A DNA stretch of 64,000 nucleotides, taken from Spizellomyces punctatus DAOM BR117. Its lineage: Eukaryota. The number at the start of each line of letters is the position of its first letter. The stretch's first letter is position 1. Positions 17,794 through 56,887 of the stretch are shown in pieces. A program made the position numbers and the translations under genes. The DNA is taken from assembly GCA_000182565.2 (NCBI GenBank), contig KQ257461.1. One strand, given 5' to 3'. The notes below the pieces were generated by a model, which did no database searches, was not told where the DNA came from, and saw only the letters and a program-made list of their open reading frames with translations.

Positions 17794-18196
17794 TCTAAAT
17801 CTTTTTAGTAACTAGTTGCAGAATAGGGTCTCGGGTGAATGGAATGAATTTCCGCCCTGGAGGTCTGATTGCAAATAACGCTGCGCTCGGTGGATTAATT
17901 GAAATTAAGATGACTGTGCCATTGATTACAAGCCTCAGATTGGAGAGTTTAGATTTTTGGACAAACTCTTTAAACGCTCGTAATGATTGCCTTTTCGTGG
18001 CCAGTTCCATACAGCATTGGTTTCCAGTTCATGCCATATGTAAAGTGCATGGACAAATAACCTCCATGTTAGAGTATGCCCCTTTCCATCCATTTCACTG
18101 AGAGCTATAACTTGCTTGATATGTGAGCGATACATATCGCCCTTACAGAGCAATCATGAACAAATATATTCAAACTATCCTGCTCACAGGTAAGTC

Positions 18197-18280
18197 GCCT
18201 CAGTAGCACAATCAGGTAGTGCACTCGCCTCCTAAGCTTAGGTTAGTGAGAGGTTGCGGGTTCGAGTCCCGTCTGAGGTG
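18197..18280 (+). tRNA. tRNA-Arg(CCT) with about 10-nt intron (18235-18244)
   Basis: Acceptor stem GCCTCAG/CTGAGGT, D arm GCAC..GTGC, anticodon stem CTCGC/GTGAG around CT-CCT-A, T arm GCGGG-TTCGAGT-CCCGT, downstream T-run. Confidence 0.85.
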
Positions 18281-19402
18281 TTTTGAAAGCGTCGTGGTTT
18301 TTTTTCACATTGTTTTCTGTTTTGATGCCTTGCAGAATGCTGCAATTCTCTTTGCCCTCAAGGCTTCCCTACCCGTTCTCAGCCAATACGAATGAATATT
18401 GGCATACATTGTTTTGATGAAATGCTTCGACCAGTATCCATTCGGCAAAACAAGATGCAAACAAGCATCCAATTGTTCGGATGCAAAAATGTACCGATTT
18501 CAGGGTCCTTGTCATCTCTTGGCCGAGTACCATGGATGTGGGATGTTTAATAACCAAACGTTCCAAAGCAAGATATAGCAACAAATGTCTCCAAATGGAA
18601 ATTCTGCCTCGTAAGGAGTGATGGAAGGCGTTTCAGTTGTATTGAAAACTGGTTAGCATGTGGGCTTAGCTACTCCAGGCCCAGATTTCACCATCCATCG
18701 TCGTCGTTCCTTTTTATTTTTGGCATGGGCTTTTGGGAAATCTAGTGTTTTTAATCCATTGCATCTTTTGCTCACCTTATGAACCATGAAGGTGAAGGGT
18801 AAGAGTGACAATGTTGTGTCAGGAGCTCTCCCTCCACTTGCAGAATGCTCACAAACGCTGGTGATTTCTAGGCCAAGTTGCATAGACGAAAGGCGGTGCA
18901 TTGCGGTGATCAAATGCACGGAAACACTCACAAACAGGTAAGCGCACGGACACTTGGACCTCCATGATCAACGCAGTCGAAAGGCGCTACAGACACAGGT
19001 GGCGGCCATACAGTCTGTTCTGCCGTGACACGTGGACTGGCAGAGAGTGAAATTCACTGTCGGTGCTGGCAGTTCAGATCCGTTTTTTGGTCGGTCCAGA
19101 ATTGGATATGCGGTTCAGGCACATTTGTTATGGCTCAGATCTGTTCTCAACTTTTTTGCTTGCTTTACATCAAATAGCGCAACTGCCCCACCATTTTAAT
19201 TTAATCGTTACGACTGCGAAATTCATAAGCGATCGAATAGGACTGTACCTGCACAATATCACAAAAGCAAATTTCCAACGATCGCACAAACCTGCACACC
19301 ACGAGCCCAGCAAGGATCTGATATCCAGCTCCCTGTAGATAACCGTTCAAACCTCAAACTTGTAGACTTTGCATACAACCATCCTTTGTGCCAGAATTTT
19401 CG

Positions 19403-39575: not shown

Positions 39576-39647
39576 TCCGCATTGGTCCAGTGGTTAGGAT
39601 TCCGCGCTCTCACCGCGGCGGCCGGGGTTCGATTCCCCGATGCGGAA
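39576..39647 (+). tRNA. tRNA-Glu(CTC)
   Basis: 72 nt; acceptor TCCGCAT/ATGCGGA, anticodon arm CCGCG-CTCTCAC-CGCGG, T loop GGTTCGATTCC, following T-run. Confidence 0.96.
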
Positions 39648-41264: not shown

Positions 41265-44200
41265 ATGGATATGTTCAATGACGTTGGAACACACCCTTGG
41301 CTATTGGCGTGGATAACTCTCGGGCGTTTTGTCGTTGAACTTTTTTTTTCGTTCACATCCTCTAGGTGGCCCGGGAAATGAAGTGATATCCAGCGATACC
41401 ACTTACGGAAAACTGCTCGAGCAGCTCATTGCTCAGGAAGTGGTGGATCAGCATAAAAAGGATGCAGCCGTGATTATCGATATATTGCGCACTCAAGGGC
41501 AACCCGATGCACAGATATGGGCAACTCTAATACAAGCCCGGTATGTTTCAATATAGGGTCGATTGGAACTGATCCTGTACTGACCACTTCACTATCATAC
41601 AGACGAGCGAAATTAAAGAGGCCCTTTGCATCACAGGAGCATGAAGGGCAGCAATTGCAGAATGGCATGTCTACGAAAGTTGCAGCGGTTGCACAGCGGT
41701 TTGCCGCCAGTAATGTTATGTCTGTGTCAGCCAAGCCATCAGTGCCACTACCGATCACTTCAGCGGCGCCTTTAGTGACTGCCCAAGTCATTGTTGGCGC
41801 TGCAGAAGCCGCTCAACCGTCTGCTATTGTCGTGGATCGTCATCCATCACCAGCAGTTACCAATCCTGTCAACGCACCAAATGTTCGAATAACAAAGTCT
41901 CCTCGTGCTCATCCACCTCCGCCGCAACTCCCGAAGCCGCTTCCTGTCCGGCCTATGGCAGTTCAACAGGTAGCCCAACCCCCAAGGCAGGTCACTTGTA
42001 CGACCGTGGACGACAGAGTGAATGGATCAGATCAGGAACAGCGGAAGACAGTACACGCGGCTGAGGTTGACTCCCCGTCGTCTACTATTCCTCAAACAGG
42101 GAAAGTCGGTCAATCAAGTGAAATTCTGATAGGCATGTCAACAGCTACGGAAGTTTCACTGGGATCTCAAACTAAGGGTATTCCCAGCTACGATAGCATG
42201 GATGAAGCAGCGTTGATACGGCAGCTCCAAGCTAAACAAGAAGATGTGACGAAGTATGAGAAGTTAGCTACGATTGCCAGAGCGGAGGCAAAGCGCTTGA
42301 AGAAAGCTCTGTTGAGAAAGCGGAAACGGGTAGAGTCTACAGACAGTGTTCTTCCTAATGGAGAACAACCAACACTCCTTCCTGGCGTTGACGATACCGT
42401 GCAGCAAACGCAGGTTGATAAACTACCAAAAAAGAAGCGCAAGTTGCAGGATAGTCTGACGGAGCCAACAAAATCAAATACAGCTGGTCAAGCTAGCAAG
42501 TCACTTGCAGGCGAGAGTGCGATGGAAACGCCAAAGGAATTGCCAAACATTGTTGGAGAACGCCAGGCCGAGGCAAGACAGATTCAGACTCAGATTACTC
42601 CAAAGGCAAAGCCTTTGGCAAGTAAACCATGGACTTTGCGCATGACCGAGGACGATGATGAAGTAGGGTTCACGACGGCTGGTCCTGTCAAGATTAATGT
42701 CACATCAACGCGTCAAGGAAATGATGCCCCGCAAAATACCCAAATGATCGAAGTCCCCAGTTACGATACCAAGGAACTCGTCACAGACAGGACGCAAAGC
42801 GAGAAGACATCTATCGCCGTGAAAATGTCGGTATCTAACATACGCATGCCATCTGAGCATGATGCAGTTGAAGTCGCATCTACCGCGAAGGGAGCGACTC
42901 TATCCCCTCGTGAGCAGCGTGAGGCAGAAGTTAGAAAAGCAATGGAGAGGGATGAATGGGCAAAGCGCCAGCGCGCAAGCGAATCAAGCAAGCAAAGACC
43001 TCTTTCGCTTGATTCCGACTACGGGCAAATCATTCAAGAGTATCAGCAAAAGGCACAGTCCGTGTACAACGAGCGAATGGCGCTAACGAAGAGATCGAGT
43101 ATTGTGGAAGAGGTGACATCTCAAGTGGATGCAATGAAAAAAGCAAAAAAAGGGAAGCAAGCACCTCCGATCGTCGAGACACCATTGGCAGCGAATTCCT
43201 CGGAAAGAAGGGTTTCTCTGACCGAGGAAGAAGCCCGACGACTGCGCGAAGCCGCTCAGAAACGACTCCTCATCAAGCAGCGTGAGGAATTGGAGATGAT
43301 GGCCCGCGAGGCCGCTCAGAAACGACGCGACGAGGCCGAGAAAATGGCTCACGAAGAGGAGCAGCGACGGCGGGAAGCACAGCGCCGCGTGGAAGAGCTG
43401 CTGAAACGTGAGGAAGCGGAGAGGAAACGACGACATGAAGAGGAACGGAAGCATCGTGCAGAACGAGCAAGACTGCAGCGTGAAGAGCAAGAGCGGAAGA
43501 AACGGGAAGAGGAAGAGAGACGTCGTGAAGAGCAAGAGCACAAGAAACGGGAAGAAGAAGAAAAAAGACTCCGTGAGGAGCAAGCTCGGTTACAGCGTGA
43601 AGAGCAAGAGCGCAAGAAACGTGAGGAAGAGGAAAAGAGACGTCGTGAGGAACAAGCTCGATTACAGCGTGAACAAGAGGAGCGAAAGCAAAGGGAGGAA
43701 CTCCTTCGCAAACAGTTGCAAGAGCAAGAGCGCAAGAAACGGGAAGAAGAGGAAAAGAGACTCCGTGAGGAACAAGCGCGCATGCAGCGTGAAGAGCAAG
43801 AGCGGAAGAAACGGGAAGAGGAAGAGAGACGTCGTGAAGAGCAAGAGCATAAGAAACGGGAAGAAGAAGAAAAGAGACTTCGTGAGGAGCAAGCTCGGTT
43901 ACAGCGTGAAGAGCAAGAGCGCAAGAAACGTGAGGAAGAGGAAAAGAGACGTCGTGAGGAGCAAGCTCGATTACAGCGTGAACAAGAGGAGCGAAAGCAA
44001 AGGGAGGAACTCCTTCGCAAACAGTTGCAAGAGCAAGAGCGCAAGAAACGGGAAGAAGAGGAAAAGAGACTCCGTGAGGAACAAGCGCGCATGCAGCGTG
44101 AAGAGCAAGAGCGGAAGAAACGGGAAGAGGAAGAAAAGAGACTTCGTGAGCAGCAAGCTCGGTTACAGCGTGAAGAGCAAGAGCGCAAGAAACGTGAAGA

Positions 44201-46201
44201 AGAGGAAAGGAGACGTCGCGAGGAACAAGCGCGCTTACAGCGTGAACAAGAGGAGCGAAAGCAACGGGAGGAACTTCTTCGCAAGCAATTACAAGAGCAA
44301 GAGCGCAAACGACGCGAAGAGCAGCTGCGGAAGCGTCTCGACGAGGAAGAAAGTAAACGTAAAGAGATAGAACATACTCAACGGCAACAGGATGAGGAAA
44401 TCCGACGCGCGGCAGAGCGGAGCTTGGCCGAAAAACAAAGACTCGCTCGAGACGCCCTTTTAGCAGATACATTTGTTCGTGGGGTAGTCTCAGAACACAC
44501 TGGGAAAGCGGTCGATGCGCAGAGTCAATTACATCAACAAGCTGAGAAACGGGCGGAGGAGCTGCGACAAAAGTTAATGAGAGGAAAGCAGATCAAGGAC
44601 GTACAAGGACGCAAGGTCTCAGAGAGCGCGCCAGAGTCTCTCACATCCAGCCCTGTGCAATTGCCAGCTCAGCCCTCCACTTCATCATTCTCACAAACAA
44701 AAGAGACGACACCGGTCTCCACTAGTAGGGCTCCGATACCCGGGTCAGGATCCTCATCAAAACTGCCCCTGGTATCGCATGTCCCCGTGACAACTGCCGT
44801 AGTGAGCGTTGTTCATGACCTGTCTCCGAACCAACTTACGGCCTCTCCAATTATCTCGAAGGCGAAGCAACTAGAACTGGAAGAAGGAGAAATCGAAGAG
44901 TTCTCTACACCAGTCAGCAGCAAGACCAATAGTCCTGTGCCAGTTCAGCAGGTTGAAGTTTTGAAACGAACTAGCCAGCCGGCAAGCGTTATTGGATCAA
45001 CTGCTGTACTTTCGGTTAGCTCCGGGCAGAATGGTAAGAGATGCGCTCACATGGCTCTGTCGTTGTGCTCATTCCGCGATCTGCTTAATTCTGCTTATTG
45101 ATCCTGACAGCATTATCCTCAACGCCTGCTGTGTGTGGTGCAAGGGTGAAAACTGAAAGTGCTATCGCCAGTCCCGAAATACCATATGAAGTGGAAACGC
45201 CAAGTTCAGCAAGAACAGGTCGTGAGCGTTCTATGACCACGGAAATCAATCCGTTCGCCGTTGTGCGCTTCGCTAACGGACAACCATCGGTGGGCCAACA
45301 ATTTTCGACTCAGAATCCATTCATCCAGAATTCGGCCATGGGCCCAGGATTCACAGGGGCCAATTTGATGGGTGGTTTTGGTGCTCCTGGATTAGGTTTT
45401 CCCCTTGCTGACGGAGGAATGTTTGCTACAGGGGCATCCGCTAGCTTACCTCCGGAAATCAGAGCTCAAATTCTTGCGTCGCATCATCAAGCCCTGCAAA
45501 CATATCAACAAGCCTTGACGCAATTTACCGCTCACTTCTTGAATCAAGCAGCCATCTCTTTCCCTCAACCTCGACCGCAGGTACAAGGTATGGTACCGCC
45601 TGCGGCACCAGTATTCGGCCCCACCATCCCGCCACAGCAAGGAACGCAGACCGGATTTCAAGCAGATACCACCCTTTCTGCACCATTGTCATCCACAGCC
45701 GCTAGGCAAGCTTTGCAACCAAGTGACCTTGGAATGACAACAGGTGGGCGTCCCGGTGTTGTTCCAGCTAACCCTCCCCTAGCATTCCCTGAACGTCTAA
45801 GGGCAATGGGCGGAGCTCCAAACTTCATTGGCTTTGGCGCCCCCCCAATGATGGGTGGATTTACCTATCCTCAAGGCGCAGTTTTGCCTCAGCAGCCTGG
45901 GAATCCGACACCTTTTTCAATGCCTACCAATGGTCCACCGACGATGATGAACATAAATCCTCCTTCGGGTACAGCGCCGGGAGGGTATACTCCAACTGTA
46001 CCCTTTGTGGGCAGTTTATCAGGCGCCGGCTCTAGCACCACGCCAACTCCTATGCAACGAATGGCTGGTGTTCCCGTTGGAGGAGCAACGATGGATGAGA
46101 CTACTTTGAGGGGCATTCAACAAAGGATTGCTGATATGGCTAGACAACAAGGATCACCACAAGGAAGCACGCAGGTGTCCCATCCTGGATTTCAAAGTTA
46201 G
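41265..46201 (+). CDS. Very large low-complexity protein with E/R/K/Q helical repeat and Pro/Gly/Gln-rich C-terminus
   Basis: 1194-codon ORF joined by an intron (about 45033-45110) to a 367-codon ORF. Upstream small exons and the start are uncertain. Confidence 0.7.
43474..44308 (+). repeat. Coding tandem repeat, 309-bp (103-aa) period, about 2.7 copies, built from shorter EEQERKKREEE subunits
   Basis: TGCAGCGTGAAGAGCAAGAGCGGAAGAAACGGGAAGAGGAAGA recurs at 43474, 43783 and 44092. Confidence 0.92.
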
Positions 46202-47749: not shown

Positions 47750-50700
47750 TGTGCTTGCGGCCTCATAAGTATTCTTGCCCACATGCTTATGTGGTTGGAT
47801 GAATGAACGAGTGGCTAGTGGAACGATGATTTCTTTCGATGAACTTTGCGAATGCTGAGTTGAGGAACCTGAAGGACCTGAAGAATCACGATATATGTCG
47901 TTTGGTGGCCATTAGCTCAATCGTCCTATGAGCTTGACACCGAGCGCAGAGTATTGATGGATGCGATGGAAGCGTGCACCTGTGGCCAATGTTTACATCT
48001 TAGACTCGCAGTGCCAGCTGCAACTCTATTTTCAGGACGATTTGCCAAATCAGTGGGCCATCTGAGGTCTATGCTGGTGTCTCCAACACCCCTTCCGTTC
48101 GTAGTAACCCGAGGAAGTCCGCTTGCCTCTGATGCATCTTTTAGGAAGCAAGTAAGGTATAAGCTTGCACTGTCGCTTAACGCTATAACAGTCAGTGTTC
48201 ACCTCTCGTGACATTGCGTCTGCTCGTCGTGTCTCGCTTTCCAGTGAGCTTCTGTGTATTCATCTGTTATTAACATCTCTGGCAACACTGAAGATCTGCG
48301 GGTCTTTTGACTCACCGGAGCTTGTGAGCTTCTTCCTTATATGTCTTAACTCTTGTTTTCAAAACTTGTAATTTATTCTTGAAGAGGGTCTGGGACTACA
48401 GGCCGTGATTCAGCTGAGAGAGAGTCGCAGGCTCTGAAAGTCATAGCGTTTTACCTTGTCCAGCAAGTCCTCCAGCTCTCTTGACTTATCCGCTAATTTC
48501 TCCTTTTCCTTGATAAGCGCCTCAAGCTTCTGGGTGAGGTTGGTTTTTTCTTTGCTCCAAGTAGACTTGAAAAAAATGATCTACGCATCAGTGTCGAGGA
48601 TCGTGTGGGCTAGTTTCTCACTCAAAGTGGCTAACATACACGATAGCGTTCTGCATTATGGAAGTAGGCCTCGCGCTCCTTCTCCATCTGTTCAGATATT
48701 TGCGCCAATTGACCTTGAAGTGACTGGAGTGCCGCTTCTGTTGACGCGAGCTTCTCTCTAAGCATGCAACAATAAGTAATCATGAACATGCCAATGTGAT
48801 GCAATGTCATTCACTGGTACCTCAAAACCTCTTCCCCCTTCCTTCGCAGTGCTACATCTTTATTGAGTTCAGCTGTTTGCGCTTCAGCTTCCTGTATGGC
48901 TTTTTTGAAATGGTCGATTTCAGCTTGCAGACGCTCAATCTGGGCTGTGTTCTCCATTCGGGCTTGTGCCAATGAATCATTTTGGGTTTGAAAGGTGCGA
49001 ATGGTTTGCTTGAGGTTTGAAAGTTCCTTAATCGTAAACATGAGTTCCGTGAAGAATAAGCTTGAAGCGGGGTATGAATGCCTACCTGATGCAGATCCTT
49101 TTCAGCGGAATCACTCAAAGCTTCCGCTTCGGTATTTTTTTGTTTAACATCCGCCAACTGTTTTTCCAGCTATAATAATGTTGAAAATTTGACATTAGGT
49201 TTGAGTGGATATTTGACTATCAACTGTTGCAGCCCGCCCTGTGCTTACATCGCATTTTTGAGATTCGAGCTGTGACCGCTTTGCCCATTCCTCCTCCCTC
49301 GCCAACCTCAATTTCTCAAGAAGGTCTTTCTCACCGTTGGATACACGATCACGAAGCGACTGTATAGTTTCGTTTGCTGTTTTGAGGTGACTGGTGGGAG
49401 CGAAGATTAGGCAATGCGAGGCGCTGATGATTGGTTTGGTAGTGCGCACCTTTCAAGCTCGACCACCTTTTCTTTTAGATCGTTGATCGTGTTCTCAAAT
49501 TGATTACGCTCTTTGAGCATCGACAGCTTCAAGTCACTCGTTTCAATCCTGCCATTATCAATTAGGTCTGTACGGAAGATCCATAATAGGGTAATACACG
49601 TACTTGACAGTATGCAGATTCTCTTCAAGCTTACTTCGGACTTTATTCAGGTCCTTTGTGAGAACAGCATTCTGCTCTGTGACTTGATCAAGCGTACGGA
49701 GGGTTTGCGTGGCTTCGTTTTCCATAGACGCTATCTGGTCAAATGCCCGTTGGCGTAAGCTGCAAACATTATCATACCATTTGCCCAATTGCAATTACAA
49801 ACCTGTGTGGCCAATGCATCTTTTTCAGCATGCAATGTTTTCGAATGTGCAACCTCGTCTATGAGCTTTCTCTGGTGGATGCGGGCTTGCTGCTCATAAT
49901 CGACCCGAAGTTTCTCTTTCTCTGCTCTATTGTCGAAGATTTCGATGAGGTACATGTCTGGTAATACCGAATACAAGCTCGACATACCTCAGTTCCTCAT
50001 TCTCGGGGAGAAGGGACTGCACTTTGAGCTGTAGTTCAGCGTTCTCCCTTTGGAGCTCGCGGAGTCGCTTGGTGTCCATTGAAGAATCTTTTTATGCAGT
50101 CCGTTTATATTACTATCCGCGGTTTAGCATTCCTGGCATCCTGTCCCTTACCGAGACATTGTCGCAGTTCCAGCATACGAGCTTCAAGCGCCGCCATCTC
50201 GTCTTGATACGATTGTTCCATGTCTTTTAACTTGGACTCTAGTTGTGCACGCTAAAAGTAGATATTAGCACGTTTCGCTAAGTTCATTCTGATGGAGCAT
50301 CATATACCTCACGTTCGATATCAGTTTTGGCGACTTCATGATCCCGCCGCAAGGCATAGTACATGGAGCGGTACTTCTCTGTTTCCTACCTCATCAGCGT
50401 TAGTTTTCCACCTTTTACGTACTTATCCAGTAGGTCAGGCGTGTGCAATTACCTGTTTTAAGCCCTTTGAGCGCTTCTCATTTTGCTCCTCCATTTCCTG
50501 TACAACTTTAAGGCGGAGGATTTCCAAATCTCTGCATATCACATATGTGGATCAGGACCCCTTTTTGCATGACTGTAGCGGGCACATCAACTAACTTTGG
50601 TTGTGGAGCTTTGGAACGGAATTCTTCTAGCTCCCGGGATTTAGCGTTAAGTTGTGATTTAAAGAGTGATGTTGATTCGCTTATTTGAGCCTCTAAAGCT

Positions 50701-51020: not shown

Positions 51021-51290
51021 ATTTCTTGTTGTTAAACCGAACCCTGGCTGGTGCAGCGTGAAGCTGCTGCGCACACATAACGCAGCGACGCGTTCGTTGA
51101 TTACATAATATCGAGGTGAGGGCTCATCCTGCGATCAATACTCATGCAACACCAGGAGCTCTCCCATTAGTGAGCATCAGTACGTCTCCATAAGACTTCG
51201 AACATACTGCTTGAACTACCATCTATAGCAAGAACGTTCGTTTGGTGATGGGGGGAAAGATGCACATTTGGAGTTTGAGATCACTACATA

Positions 51291-52020
51291 GTGTGGAGGC
51301 GATTGAAAATGGCACTAGGACCCATTATTATCCGGATTAATCCGGTTAATCATATCGCATAATCAGAACCCCCCTCTATCGCTCTTGGTGTGGCATGCAT
51401 GTAATGTTTTTTTTTAAAATTGCGATGTGGTGCATGCCAAAGGTCTATAAAAGGGGGGCCTTTTCCCTCTTTCCTCTTTACCCATCCTCGACTCTCAAAG
51501 CATCTGCACAAATGCTCATTGCGACCCACATTGCAACTCATTGCGACTCGGTCAACCATGAGAATGCCGATGTGGTGGTGTCGAGGACCTCGACCACCCA
51601 ACAGCAACCGTGATCAGAACCAGTGGCAACCAATCGGATCCGATAACAGAACCTACTATTACGCTGCCACATTAGTTGAGCTTGGTTGGTATGTATCGAT
51701 GGCATTTCTTGCATTTCTTGTCATCGGGTCATCTTCTGACATGCAGTTTTTTTCTCTAGTCTCCAAGCCTTGTCACTGAAGATCCTCCAGCTTACGAGTC
51801 TCCCCAATATTGTGAAGACTCTGGCTTCAATGCCATCAAGAGTTCTGGATCAAGGCCTAGTAGGGACTGCGTGTGGTGGTGGGCAGTTATCCGGTTAGAA
51901 CAACCGTTACGTATTGCGTGTATAATTGCCTAGTAGTAGTTAGTTAGCTTTTCCGAACCAGTTGTCGCCGGTTTATTCCCTGGTGTAGTAGCTAGTGCCA
52001 GTTTCTGTCACCTAATACAC
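51291..52020 (+). mobile_element. Non-autonomous Fanzor-family 'ghost' TIR element without Fanzor ORF
   Basis: Flanked by CATA (51287-90) and TATG (52021-24). The left end GTGTGGAGGCGATTGAAAATGGCACTAG matches the reverse complement of the right end at 22/29 positions. It shares the GTG...TGGCACTAG frame with the Fanzor element TIR. Confidence 0.85.
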
Positions 52021-52037
52021 TATGTATTTCACCTGTA
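51948..52037 (+). ncRNA. Diverged omegaRNA-like scaffold (51948-52022) plus predicted guide TGTATTTCACCTGTA
   Basis: 44/54 identity to the first 54 nt of the scaffold at 56798, the same 75-nt length, ending in CACTA. Guide length assumed to be 15 nt. Confidence 0.75.
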
Positions 52038-52115
52038 CAGGGATGCAGAGAATACGCATCATCATATGGGCACGGGACACAAACGAGAATTCTCGGCTAC
52101 TGCTACAGTCTAGCG

Positions 52116-53254
52116 CTATTCCTCTCTGGGCTGCAGAATGGAATCTGCCTCACTTTGCAAAATGGCCGCTTCATCTCCATAACGCTTTGGATCAACCCTA
52201 CCCTTCTGCTTCATCTCTTGGGACATCAACTCAGCTGCTTTGGCTTTCTTTTCAAGCGCAATTTTGACCTGTTCCTTCTTTGGTAGCTCCTCGACTTCTT
52301 CATGCGTTAATTTTGCAAGAGCATCTCTGATCTTTTTCTTTTCGCCTTCTTTCATTTGATTGACATCAGCGATCGCCTCTCTAGCACCCTCCGATGGAAC
52401 TGGAAGATTGTCTTCATGCAAGGCAATCCGCGCAAGGGACTCAATAATGGCTTTCTCGGGTCCGGTGTCAAGATTTTTGCCACCATGGACCTCGGCAATG
52501 TGCCTTAACATTCGGTCAGCTTCGCTCATGAGCTTGGAAGCAGGGGAATCTTTGTCGACGCGGCCCTTTTGTTTCATTTCGCGGGACATTAGCTCACGGG
52601 CCAACTCCTTCTTGGCAATTGCCTCTTTGATCTCTTTCATGACGGGATCGTCTCGCTCTGGGAGTCCCTCAGCCTTTCTCTTCGCCTGTCTCGCACTCAA
52701 TACTTCATGCAACATTTTTTGCGCTTCGCTCATAAGCTTCGAAGCTTCGCTTCCTTCCTCCGCTTTGAAAACTCTGCTGTGAATTGAGTCGCGCATCTCT
52801 TGTGACATTTGATCCTGAGCATGGATCTTCAACTCTATGGCTTGGGCGACAGGGGTCTTCTTCTTATGAGCTGGTGATTCCGTGTGAAGAGCAATAGCCT
52901 GTATTGGGCACGTCAGAATCTGCAATGAAAGGTGCTCCGGTATGGAGTACAGCGAACCTATGATCTCACCTGCATATCGTCAGCAATATGCTTTGCGCGA
53001 TCTGCTGCACTCTGCGCAACCGCCGCAGCCGAATCCTTGGGAATGACCCCACCGGTAACAGCAGCTGTCCTTGCCTCAAGTTCTTTCGCATGTCGCTGCA
53101 TACATTGAGCGGTCAATTCGGCCTGAGCAGCGTTGGCCATTTGTTTGTGTTCTGGAAGTTTGGCGATTCCTTCAGCAACTGCTTCGTCCACGTTGGAAAC
53201 TTGGGATTTGGAGGTCGTCTCGTTTTGTTCCTTCGAACATGCTAGGGTACTCAT
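52116..53254 (-). CDS. Hydrophilic helical repeat protein, LEA/seed-maturation-protein (SMP)-like, 2 exons
   Basis: Repeated motif DSAAAVAQSAAD / GSEASKLMSEA / DSPASKLMSEAD / DEAAILQSEAD; rich in A, E and K. Confidence 0.7.
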
Positions 53255-53994
53255 CCTTCAAAACTATGCGCTATTTGCGCAATACTGCAGGTGCCCTCAC
53301 CTTGGCGTCCTTTTTCACCTTCCATTTCGGATTATAAATGTGCAAATCTTATTTACAGCCTTCACGGCAAGTTTGACAGTTGGTAGGGCAGAAAAGATTC
53401 GCTGCGAGAGAGCTCAACTGTTCTTTTAAGTTCGTATTTTGAGCTTATATTACTCAAGGTTGGACACCTTTGTAGGAGCCTTTCTCCAGCTTCCGTATTT
53501 CAGAAGGCGAAGTTACTGACGGTCGGCTGCCTTTACACTACTGTAATACTGACGCCAATTCCAAGTGACCAAGGCTCACAGAAATTACCATCACGTATAA
53601 GAATCCACTGAATAGTCCATGTCTGCCATTACGTATCAAAGATATCGTGACTATTTCCCAAGGACCCTTGGGCTTGTCTGAGTCCTTTTGACGTGTAGAA
53701 GCAGGAACTCTTACAAAAAAGGACGTCGTGCATGAGAAAGGTTCCAATGCGGTGCTTCTTGCAACGTCGTTCAAAGCAGACGTCCACTTTCAATGTTATG
53801 GAGTTGACATTGATCAGACATATTTAGGCTACTCACAACGCGATGACATTATACACTATCCGTACCATATATACACTTTCAAAATAATCTTTGTGTTCTG
53901 CCTCATTGTCAGGTAACGGTAAGAGACCGACACAACAGTAGCAGTCTTCAATTACAAAAGCAATGAAAAAAAAGCACAAGATGAGGTGGGGAAG

Positions 53995-54076
53995 CGACAC
54001 GAGCAGGATTTGAACCTGCGCGGGCAGAGCCCAATAGATTTCTAGTCTATCGCCTTAACCACTCGGCCATCGTGTC
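53995..54076 (-). tRNA. tRNA-Ser(AGA)
   Basis: 82 nt; acceptor GACACGA/TCGTGTC, anticodon arm ATAGA-CTAGAAA-TCTAT, long variable arm GGGCTCTGCCC, T loop GGTTCAAATCC. Confidence 0.96.
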
Positions 54077-54825
54077 AGGTGAATGACAGAACAGGTATTT
54101 GCAATATATTCCTTGTGATATTCTATGCTCATCTGCTTCCCAGAGGCTGGCTCTAGGTAAGGCTCGTTGCAAGGAAAATTGTCGTGGCTGTAAGTTGACA
54201 TGAAGGAGTATGAAATCGCACTTTCGGGCGTTGCAGATACATTGTTGATATTGGCACTTCTCACATGTCGCCATTATCAACTATTATCATAGATGTGAAA
54301 GCAATGTTCGCATAGAAGGAGGACAGTAAAAGCAAGAATGAGCCACCTCGGTGCTAGCAGATCTGCCTCTCGTTTGGAGCACGATATATGCTCTATGAAA
54401 TTATGGCTTCATGTTTTTGAGACGAGCCTTAGACGTTGCGAGAAAGCCATGCTGAAAGACAGACTCCAATTTAGTTGACACTTGATCGAAAGCATAAGAC
54501 ATGGTAGATTTCATTGATGATTCGGATGATTTGGAGCCAATTATGTTGAAGTTATTAATTGGCATTAGCTCCGTCCATCCAGGATACATTGATGATGTCC
54601 ATGAACTTTGGAGAATAGGTTCAGCACCTTTTCTGATGGTTTTGTGTTAAAGAAAGTACGCAGTTACTTGCCGATGCTTCATGGGAACAAGATTTGGCCC
54701 AGTTCTCAACCCTTGTACATAGTGCGGAGCCGATGGGTATTGGCACTAGTACAAAGATTCCAACCAATTTAATCATAATTTTACTCGATTTAGACTCATG
54801 AACTATGGTTTGATCCAAAAAGTCC

Positions 54826-54832
54826 TATATAA
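54826..54832 (+). promoter_or_regulatory. Putative TATA box of the Fanzor gene
   Basis: TATATAA starts 57 nt upstream of the ATG; its context is similar to that in the ghost element (51446-51452). Confidence 0.5.
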
Positions 54833-54882
54833 GTTGTCGGGCCCATTTTCCCAGGCTTTCGTCTTTTTCCACAGATATCATC

Positions 54883-56783
54883 ATGCCACCAAAGAAAAAG
54901 CAAAAACTCGAAAAACTCGACAAACCTACTTGCTTACATACCTGCAACAAGACTTCCTTTGCAAAAGCTTTCCTGCCAAACGAGATCTACCGCCAACGGC
55001 TTCTAGATTACATTGCCATGATCCATCAACTTGCTGACCATGCTTCCCACACTCTCAAATTCTACATCCTATCTGCACCATCCTTCACCGTAAACGAGGA
55101 GACCATCGAAGCAATTCTCTATCTTCTCAACAAAGGAGAGGCTTGGCAACCAAAAACTGATGCGAAAAGGGCATTGCGCGAATGCTTGCTGCCCTATGTC
55201 CGACGGTACTGCCACATCGTCGGCTTCGTTCATCCAAATCTACAAAAAGAGCAGCAATCAGTCAATTACCTGACAATGAGTATGATGACGAACCTGAAAG
55301 TCAACGTCCAAGAGCATTTCATGCAGATGATCCTTCGGTATATCAATCTGCGGCTTGACGTGAAGGGACGGAAAGGGCAATTTCCTCCAAAGAGTGAAGC
55401 GCGAAAAGCTTTCTTTGCTCGGCTACGCTACTTGAAGTCAGTTTTCCTTTTCGAAACAATGCCAGAATCGCTGGATGACTTGAGCATTCTTGAAAACGAG
55501 ATTTTAGAAGAGATCTGGACACTTAACCTGCCATTTCCTGATCAAGACAAGCCGCTTGCCTACCTCATTGCCATCGACGCGATGTCCTTCTTGCCTGCAT
55601 ACTGCAAACTCTCCCGCTCTATGAGCATCATGGATTTCGATGGTTTAGCGCCATACCTCTTCGCCGCTCCCTCATCCAAAGCCATATACGCATTGACACC
55701 GTCATCCTCTATTCTCATGTTCTTTGCATCCCCCGCAGACGCAGAGAGGCAGAAGCCATAGAGAAGGATGATCTGTGGTTGCGTGTCTGTAATCTACGTA
55801 CCAAAGCTTTTCAGTCTCGCCGCAGTATGCAGTTTGAAGGCTCGATCACGACGGACGGAACCTCGGTGTCTGTATACCTAAAGCACCCCGAAGCAGACAA
55901 GTATGGAAAGCGCGGAGCGAGAAAGTCAGCAAAGACTCTAGAAGCTGAGGTGAAGGCAGTATATGTGGAGAACAACTTGCCTGCTTGTCGAGCAGCAGAA
56001 AATGTCGTCATTATTGACCCAAACAAGCGCGACCTTCTCTACTGCCAAGACAGCAATGGTGCGACGATGTTTCACTATACCGCCAATCAACGCTGCAAGG
56101 AGACTGGTAGCCGGCGATTTGCAAAGGAACGGCAGCAGATGAAGAAGGAAGCGGGAATGGACCTTATAGAATCGCGAATACCATCTCACAAGACGATGAA
56201 CCTCATGGATTTCCTCCGCTACCTCCTCGTCCGTTGTGTCGACTGGAACCGCCGCAAGGACTTCTATTCGCATCCTGCTCATACTCGATGGAAATGGCAC
56301 TCCTTCATAAACCGTCAGAAGAGCGAATCAGACCTCATAAGTAACATGCGCAACAAGTACAGTGAAAACCTTACTGTTGTAATGGGTGATTGGAGCGATG
56401 CCGGTCGAACTGCAAGATTTCAGACCTCATCAAAGACAAAAGGCTGGCGCACCCTCTTTAAGCGCAACCGCATTGATTGTTTCCTTCTCGACGAGTACAA
56501 GACCTCATCTGTTTGCCCTCGCTGTTCCTCATCTGAGTTTGTGGAGAAAAAATTCAAAGAACGACCTCATTCAAGACCTTATCGACAACGAGAAGGCAAG
56601 ATTGAAAAAGTCCACGGATTGCTGGGTTGTACCAACCCTAACTGTTTGCAGCAAGCCTGGACGATGCGCTACTGGAATCGAGATACGCTGAGCACCTGCA
56701 ATATGCTAACGATCGTGCAATCAATGTTGGATGGACACGGTAGACCAGAAGTGTTCAGCAGGAGTGTTCCAGCCGTAGCTTAG
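54883..56783 (+). pseudogene. Fz1: Fanzor1 RNA-guided RuvC endonuclease (SpuFz1-like), split by a 1-nt frameshift near 55617
   Basis: N-terminal NLS MPPKKKQKL; RuvC motifs IIDPNKRD, LLDEYKTS and NRDTLS; Zn finger CPRC..CTNPNC. Adding one base near 55617 gives a continuous 633-aa ORF. Confidence 0.92.
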
Positions 56784-56797
56784 ATTGGTTAGATTAG

Positions 56798-56887
56798 GTT
56801 TTCCGAGCCGGTTGTCGCGCGGTTCAATCCCTGGTGCGGGTGCTAGTGCCAATACCCACCGGCTCCGCACTATGTTACCAAGTCTGT
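56798..56887 (+). ncRNA. Fanzor omegaRNA: 75-nt scaffold (56798-56872) plus predicted guide TGTTACCAAGTCTGT
   Basis: Starts 14 nt after the Fanzor stop and overlaps the right TIR. Stems GAGCCG/CGGTTC, GGGTG/TACCC and TGGTGCGG/CCGCACTA. Matches my recollection of the SpuFz1 scaffold. Guide length assumed. Confidence 0.88.

Follow-up and report, generated by a model that had tools for sequence, protein, structure and literature searches.

Within the window, the whole 64,000-nt stretch of Spizellomyces punctatus DAOM BR117 DNA analysed here, positions 51289-52022 are occupied by a short element of 734 nt (as measured by the published definition of its inverted repeats, or IRs), the two ends of which form imperfect inverted repeats. 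Its parts, and the segments that abut it, are the following:

51287 to 51290, plus strand: CATA at the left junction, made up of a conserved CA (51287-51288) and then TA, and equal to the TAM of SpuFz1.
51289 to 51318, plus strand: left inverted repeat, 30 nt, as placed by the published record (NW_015971548:415335-415364).
51319 to 51946, plus strand: core of the element, about 630 nt, unrelated to the Fanzor ORF.
51332 to 51345, no strand assigned: perfect 14-nt palindrome, CCGGATTAATCCGG, just inside the left inverted repeat.
51947 to 52022, plus strand: ghost-type omegaRNA scaffold, 76 nt, recognised by covariance-model score (98.3 bits), by its fold and by identity to the published scaffold gst99.
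51992 to 52022, plus strand: right inverted repeat, 31 nt, as placed by the published record (416038-416068) and by alignment.
52023 to 52037, plus strand: predicted 15-nt guide, TGTATTTCACCTGTA, lying in flanking host DNA.

The right inverted repeat, which is also the 3′ half of stem 2 of the omegaRNA, closes with CACTA at 52022 and is followed directly by the guide sequence; to the right, 94 nt beyond the element, lies the end of a host gene (a minus-strand ORF, to 52116). An earlier note on this DNA had delimited a segment of about 730 bp between CATA and TATG, and these boundaries agree with the present ones, with TATG lying at 52021-52024. The same note had counted 22 of 29 matching positions in the TIRs. 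Comparison of the left end with the reverse complement of the right end gives 27 identical columns among 37 aligned, a stretch that takes in the CA/TG and a few inner bases, and within the IRs proper 24 of 31 columns match (hand count from the alignment), which is of the same order. CATA and both IR termini are intact. TA occurs at both junctions and is invariant in all copies compared, so that, short of an empty site, it is indistinguishable from the opening dinucleotide of the IR; it has been regarded as a putative target-site duplication (PMC3627910). The TG that follows the right-hand TA is no feature of the family, as two other published copies carry GC and TT at this position (by eye). 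The palindrome just inside the left IR is present in three other published copies of the element and has a one-base change in a fourth (by eye).

About 2.7 kb from the right end of this element (52022 to 54717), the distance that had been given earlier, lies a Spu-1 Fanzor (Fz) element:

54717 to 56875, plus strand: neighbouring Spu-1 Fanzor element, 2.16 kb, with a 36-nt TIR pair that is 94% complementary.
About 54884 to 56783, plus strand: Fz gene of this neighbour, split by a frameshift near 55611-55621.
56798 to 56872, plus strand: omegaRNA scaffold of the neighbour, with its guide at 56873-56887.

The two long reading frames of the neighbour match SpuFz1 (PDB 8GKH) with E values of 7e-210 and 1.7e-120; agreement with SpuFz1 runs in the N-terminal frame as far as about nt 55621 and is carried on, from about nt 55614, by the other frame. 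As sequenced, and judged from these frames, the neighbouring Fanzor copy is a frameshifted pseudogene, and thus the shorter element cannot depend on it for Fanzor protein.

Similarity between the two elements is confined to their ends. The left end of the short element and that of the Fz element are identical in 28 of 36 columns (blastn, 81% over 37 nt, E 0.001), with the blocks CATAGTG and TGGCACTAG in common and a differing core between them, much as the earlier description of a Fanzor-like TIR with a different core had it. By hand count, 6 of 30 positions differ between the two left IRs; other copies of the short element have one further difference from Fz, a T at a position where the window copy has C (by eye). 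At the right end, window positions 51928-52000 match 56778-56851 (blastn within the window, 80% over 75 nt, E 1.5e-10), and a MAFFT alignment of the two scaffolds has 55 identical columns out of 77, with 45 of the first 54 Fz positions matched where 44 of 54 had been counted before. Inside these ends, no coding remnant of Fanzor was detected when pieces of the Fz protein were compared with the short element by tblastn (best E 0.10, 18.9 bits), and blastn of its interior against the Fz interior found no similarity (best E 3.6). The possibility of a Fanzor remnant in the element was rejected on these values, in keeping with the earlier statement that it holds no Fanzor-like coding sequence. A blastn search of the element against the 64-kb window at word size 7 revealed no further copy.

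The omegaRNA assignment draws on sequence, structure and published protein contacts. The two scaffolds were used to train a covariance model, with which the entire window was searched unfiltered. It scores the short element's scaffold at 98.3 bits and the Fz scaffold at 96.6 bits, both being training sequences of the model, and finds no third scaffold; below these come the left TIRs of the two elements in reverse orientation (18.6 and 13.9 bits), and all other matches have E values of at least 0.2. A covariance search of this kind had been suggested earlier. Rfam 15 at E≤1 recovers no omegaRNA family between positions 50000 and 58000, only a tRNA and a sub-threshold chance match. In the consensus fold both stems are common to the two RNAs, and among 14 pairs there are two compensatory changes, two one-side changes and no broken pair. 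The minimum free energy of the short element's scaffold is -15.9 kcal/mol (z -1.17; 29 of 200 shuffled sequences fold at least as well), as compared with a z-score of -1.88 for the Fz scaffold, and folding energy alone is weak evidence for the former. One position of stem 1 is unpaired because of the A at scaffold position 13.

In the published structure-based description of the Fz omegaRNA, U5, C6, C7 and G20 contact the protein, A29-C34 form the linker, U35/G37 and A72/A75 lie at the base of stem 2, and the segment C40-G70 makes no protein contact and can be deleted (PMC10432273). This numbering fits the Fz scaffold of the window exactly when nucleotide 1 is placed at 56798. The scaffold of the short element keeps every individually named contact, namely U5 C6 C7, G20, the CCC of the linker, U35/G37 and A72/A75, and its linker departs from that of the Fz scaffold at two bases only (Fz A30 and C28). 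Outside Fz positions 40-70 the two scaffolds are identical in 39 of 45 columns, and inside them in 16 of 32. We consider it probable that the scaffold is a competent Fanzor guide scaffold.

This anatomy is the one described for the "ghost Spu-1 elements", 134 of which, together with 42 Fz loci, have been reported in S. punctatus DAOM BR117, a genome said in the same paper to hold 19 full-length Fz genes (PMC10432273). Ghosts are described there as having two regions homologous to the Fz IRs and lacking an Fz ORF. A region of about 550 nt is conserved among them, seven positions set their 30-nt IRs apart from those of Fz, the 5′ IR is preceded by a conserved CA, and a stretch of 75 nt over the 3′ IR resembles the Fz omegaRNA region with a different stem 2. 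Conservation among ghosts is strongest in the omegaRNA and the IRs (PMC10432273, Extended Data Fig. 3 legend). The window element has every one of the defining traits, and it departs from the description at the level of the individual copy only; the diverged IR core and diverged stem 2 noted above are themselves published hallmarks of the group (PMC10432273).

The locus itself can be found in the same source. The C-terminal peptide of the flanking host gene occurs once in the supplements of PMC10432273, in record NW_015971548.32_-_ghost of file 6, which places the IRs at 415335-415364 and 416038-416068 of supercont1.12, a span of 734 nt that corresponds to window positions 51289-52022. The record equals the window in the stretches compared, including both IR junctions, and its trimmed flank resumes at window position 52289 as the window does; these identities were judged by eye rather than with an aligner. 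File 6 comprises 135 LOCUS records, 7 of them on the supercontig of this ghost, and the neighbouring Fanzor element is record NW_015971548.32_-_Loci_with_Fz of file 5, which marks the ghost at its edge. A second study lists 126 unique ghost scaffolds (gst1-gst126, 74-76 nt) and tests representatives with SpuFz1-v3 (PMC13434818); gst99 in its supplement is the same as window positions 51947-52022 letter for letter, by exact string match. The closely related gst9, which has G in place of A at position 13 as its one differing base and has the same unusual 3′ end, is among the scaffolds with higher editing efficiency with SpuFz1-v3, and the relevant passage does not name gst99 itself as tested (PMC13434818).

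Lined up by eye with four other published ghost records, the core of the window copy corresponds along its length, and it lacks a 12-nt stretch that is present in two other copies. Its right IR, with one extra base and some substitutions relative to the other copies compared, measures 31 nt and its scaffold 76 nt, as against 30 and 75 nt in most ghosts. Window positions 51289-52022 are thus almost certainly a catalogued ghost Spu-1 element of S. punctatus DAOM BR117. It is not new, because the element class, the exact locus and the exact scaffold are already in print (PMC10432273, PMC13434818). The earlier note knew of ghost loci in this fungus and was unsure whether the particular subfamily had been described; both have been, the latter down to this locus and its gst99 scaffold.

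The reading that best accommodates these observations, and one that we consider probable, is that the ghost is a non-autonomous element whose omegaRNA is loaded in trans onto Fanzor and targets its own empty site, CATA followed by TGTATTTCACCTGTA. The earlier proposal of a Fanzor-less, non-autonomous element that supplies its own omegaRNA and borrows Fanzor and transposase in trans was along the same lines, and it agrees with PMC10432273, the discussion of which connects ghost loci with trans-acting Fz. In such a scheme, a transcript starting inside the ghost would cover the 76-nt scaffold together with 15 nt or more of the flank, and would then be trimmed to a scaffold-plus-guide RNA of about 90 nt. 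Trimmed RNAs of this kind are documented for Fz loci only, with native small RNAs at four of them; transcripts there reach 14-15 nt beyond the 75-nt scaffold, giving an RNA of about 88-90 nt (PMC10432273). The ghost RNA would be bound in trans by Fanzor protein from an intact Spu-1 copy elsewhere, a pairing made plausible by two papers in which SpuFz1 accepts ghost scaffolds in human cells (PMC10432273, PMC13434818).

The sequence at the junctions fits an empty-site logic. SpuFz1 requires a 5′-CATA TAM, and a change of any of its bases abolishes cleavage (PMC10432273). The CA upstream of the element and the TA of its IR together make up such a TAM, and an allele free of the element would read CATATGTATTTCACC, in which the RNP would be expected to cleave at CATA and the adjoining TGTATTTCACCTGTA. 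The occupied site reads ACTA, not CATA, ahead of the same 15 nt, so that the target would exist only where the ghost is absent and the occupied site should be immune to cleavage. A search of the window for CATA plus guide with up to three mismatches returns the occupied site alone, with two mismatches, both in the TAM. Repair from the occupied copy would then restore or spread the ghost, as in the "cut-and-copy" model for bacterial TnpB, in which the nuclease cleaves the empty donor joint and repair from the sister copy keeps the element in place (PMC10055086). Movement of the ghost needs some transposase in trans, and PMC10432273 reports finding no transposase within Spu-1 IRs. Whether the fungus in fact transcribes this particular ghost and uses it to cleave empty sites is a narrower matter, on which we incline very slightly to the negative.

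The most serious competitor is that the ghost is an inert relic, a decaying copy whose mobilisation, expression and loading have all ceased and that records past activity. The imperfection of the TIRs (the 27 of 37 columns given above), the extra base of the right IR relative to other copies, the unpaired stem-1 position and the weak folding z-score would all suit a decaying copy, as would the frameshift in the adjacent Fz gene, the lack of any transposase reported for Spu-1 (PMC10432273) and the lack of an annotated transcript model at the ghost locus. Decay would, however, have had to spare every named protein-contact nucleotide, the identity of 39 of 45 columns outside the dispensable region, the CATA and both IR termini. 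Moreover, gst9, one base apart and with the same 3′ variant, is named among the active scaffolds (PMC13434818), and the loss of the adjacent Fz gene is set against 19 full-length Fz genes elsewhere in the genome (PMC10432273). A relic is thus a real possibility, albeit distinctly less likely than a ghost with a usable guide RNA.

The core of the ghost raises a separate set of considerations. Two features may be recognised within it:

51558 (ATG) to 51688, plus strand: candidate short exon, a 131-nt open stretch.
51689 to 51759, plus strand: intron-like stretch of 71 nt, with a GTATGT start, a branch-like CTGAC and a terminal TAG.

Within other ghost copies there are RefSeq gene models, at least three of which came to light in a peptide search of the supplement (line breaks could hide more): SPPG_09412, SPPG_08830 and SPPG_09407 all include this exon and have an intron in the corresponding position, and the right IR is overrun by two of the three mRNA models, by 175 and 307 nt. 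File 6 opens with a record in which the mRNA model for exportin CRM1 has the ghost ATG as its start and includes the ghost intron. Record NW_015971548.32_-_ghost has no gene model annotated inside the ghost copy. Beyond a short common start (LQA or LQV), the exon-2 frames of the three annotated proteins and of the window copy differ from one another. On the ground of this divergence, the idea that the core encodes a conserved small protein was rejected, and we do not consider such a protein likely to be made.

A transcription unit that feeds the omegaRNA is a more attractive function for the core than a conserved protein. Tentatively, on the indirect evidence of the RefSeq and exportin CRM1 models and of the intact signals in the window copy, the core could be a self-contained RNA polymerase II unit that makes the omegaRNA precursor. 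Transcription would begin some 110-130 nt from the left end, pass through a short first exon and a 71-nt intron removed by the spliceosome, and continue past the right IR. We regard this as a possibility that falls well below an even chance. If it were so, a host gene downstream of a newly inserted ghost could acquire its promoter and first exon from the element, in the manner of the exportin CRM1 model. The main text of PMC10432273, figures and PDF supplements aside, does not contain the word "intron" and uses "promoter" only for U6 and yeast expression constructs, and a ghost core with a possible promoter and intron seems not to have been discussed in print.

The same features could be turned around, such that the core, as a small gene or as a mobile promoter, first exon and intron, is the functional part of the ghost and the omegaRNA a mere passenger. 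The common exon and intron of the three models, the two mRNAs that overrun the right IR and the use of the ghost ATG and intron by the exportin CRM1 model are as such a scheme would have them, and the window copy itself keeps the ATG, the GTATGT donor, the CTGAC branch-like site and the TAG acceptor. Yet no protein is conserved past exon 1, and it is the omegaRNA and the IRs, rather than the core, that are the most strongly conserved parts of ghosts (PMC10432273). We consider a passenger omegaRNA improbable.

An omegaRNA that acts in trans also requires a partner, and the earlier note had allowed that the ghost might belong to a different Fanzor paralog, not of the SpuFz1 type. Ghosts are consistently unlike Fz loci in their IR core and in distal stem 2, and three Fanzor1 families are recorded in S. 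punctatus (PMC3627910, Table 1), which would leave room for a dedicated paralog. The functional data point elsewhere: the 75-nt ghost scaffolds of four loci, combined with wild-type SpuFz1 in HEK293FT cells, give indels comparable to those of extended canonical scaffolds (PMC10432273), and several more ghost scaffolds work with SpuFz1-v3 (PMC13434818). The divergence, furthermore, is concentrated in C40-G70, the part that makes no contact, and one Fz locus on NW_015971539 joins a ghost-like stem 1 to a canonical stem 2 (by eye), which implies that the variants mix within Fz loci. Given this compatibility with SpuFz1 and the location of the divergence mostly in the non-contacting part of stem 2, a different paralog is not needed, and we hold it to be very improbable. 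Chance resemblance to the ends of a Fanzor element, which short TIR matches without other support would have allowed, can be dismissed in view of the scaffold blastn match noted above, the catalogued locus and covariance scores of 98.3 and 96.6 bits against 18.6 for the next match, though both scaffolds trained the model.

A non-autonomous element that would supply an omegaRNA to Fanzor in trans is the reading retained here. As a locus, this ghost is ordinary: its class, position and scaffold are published, and its class of scaffold has been tested with SpuFz1. What it illustrates is that a guide-RNA-bearing non-autonomous transposon can be recognised from raw sequence.

Among the known systems closest to it, beside the published ghosts, are the Spu-1 Fanzor1 elements themselves (PMC3627910; PMC10432273), with which it shares IR termini of the form CATAGTG...TGGCACTAG, a putative TA at both ends, an omegaRNA at the right end, a guide derived from the flank and the logic of a CATA TAM. 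It differs from them in size and content, the Fz elements measuring about 2.1 kb and encoding a Fanzor protein of about 633-638 aa and the ghost having an unrelated core within its 734 nt, and its distal stem 2 is only half identical to theirs. A prokaryotic parallel is provided by the PATEs, which are protein-less derivatives of IS200/IS605 elements that carry omegaRNAs (PMC10055086). Like the ghost, PATEs are non-autonomous and nuclease-less, with an omegaRNA used in trans by a nuclease of the TnpB family that another element encodes; they belong to bacteria and archaea, have hairpin ends and move as single strands by means of Y1/HUH TnpA (PMC10055086), whereas the ghost has a eukaryotic host and TIR ends with TA. 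Because its ends are inverted repeats, the ghost is not a member of the PATEs, although it would work like one. In its general form it may also be likened to TA-ended MITEs (Tc1/mariner-type, Stowaway-like). Such elements are small, have TIRs and TA at both junctions, and occur in many copies that lack a transposase gene, all of which would apply to the ghost; the ghost would be set apart from them by the guide-RNA gene that overlaps one of its TIRs.

The Fanzor gene adjoining the ghost (the Fanzor-less Spu-1-type element of this window) spans 54884-56783 and is shared between two reading frames, with a break near 55611-55621. The N-terminal frame tracks SpuFz1, the S. punctatus Fanzor, up to approximately chain residue 646 of the 8GKH structure, and the second frame resumes at residue 645 of the same chain. 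As sequenced, this copy is a frameshifted pseudogene.

Features within the ghost itself:

51289-51356, minus strand, window counterpart of published ghost scaffold entries that resemble left ends
51332-51345, perfect 14-nt palindrome CCGGATTAATCCGG, immediately interior to the left inverted repeat
51558-51759, candidate open exon (131 nt, with an ATG) and intron-like stretch (71 nt) in the ghost core

The intron-like stretch contains GTATGT, CTGAC and TAG. Three further ghost loci carry RefSeq models that include the same exon, together with an intron at the corresponding position. The reading frames of exon 2 are not conserved from one ghost copy to another. In addition, a CRM1 mRNA model begins within a ghost copy. 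As judged by eye, three other ghost copies also contain the palindrome, and a fourth has it with a single-base change; it could serve as a protein-binding site or promoter element.

Further features lie in the surrounding sequence:

18196-18281, plus strand, tRNA-Leu(AAG), elsewhere in the window
39576-39647, plus strand, tRNA-Glu(CTC), elsewhere in the window
43387-44373, long array of degenerate repeats inside the long plus-strand ORF 41457-45101
53994-54076, minus strand, tRNA-Ser(AGA), in the interval from the ghost to the Fanzor element

Another published ghost copy has a tRNA-Thr gene 66 nt away. Repeat spacings in the array are multiples of 24 nt, with 72 nt being frequent, and the array encodes a Glu/Lys/Arg-rich region of an open frame of 1214 codons.

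Comparison with the published ghost scaffolds, based on approximately 16 entries of the supplementary list of PMC13434818, indicates by eye that several of these (gst7, gst11, gst12, gst13, gst98 and gst103) look like ghost left ends in reverse complement rather than omegaRNA scaffolds. The covariance model built from the two scaffolds of the window scores the ghost left end, read backwards, at only 18.6 bits. PMC13434818 names gst7 and gst98 among those scaffolds whose relationship is more distant and whose efficiency is lower, and it may be that these left-end sequences make up the “distinct second clade” described there. At a Fanzor-bearing locus on NW_015971539 (PMC10432273, supplement file 5), the omegaRNA region joins a ghost-type stem 1 to a canonical stem 2 and inverted repeat, and looks like an intermediate or recombinant between Fanzor and ghost scaffolds.
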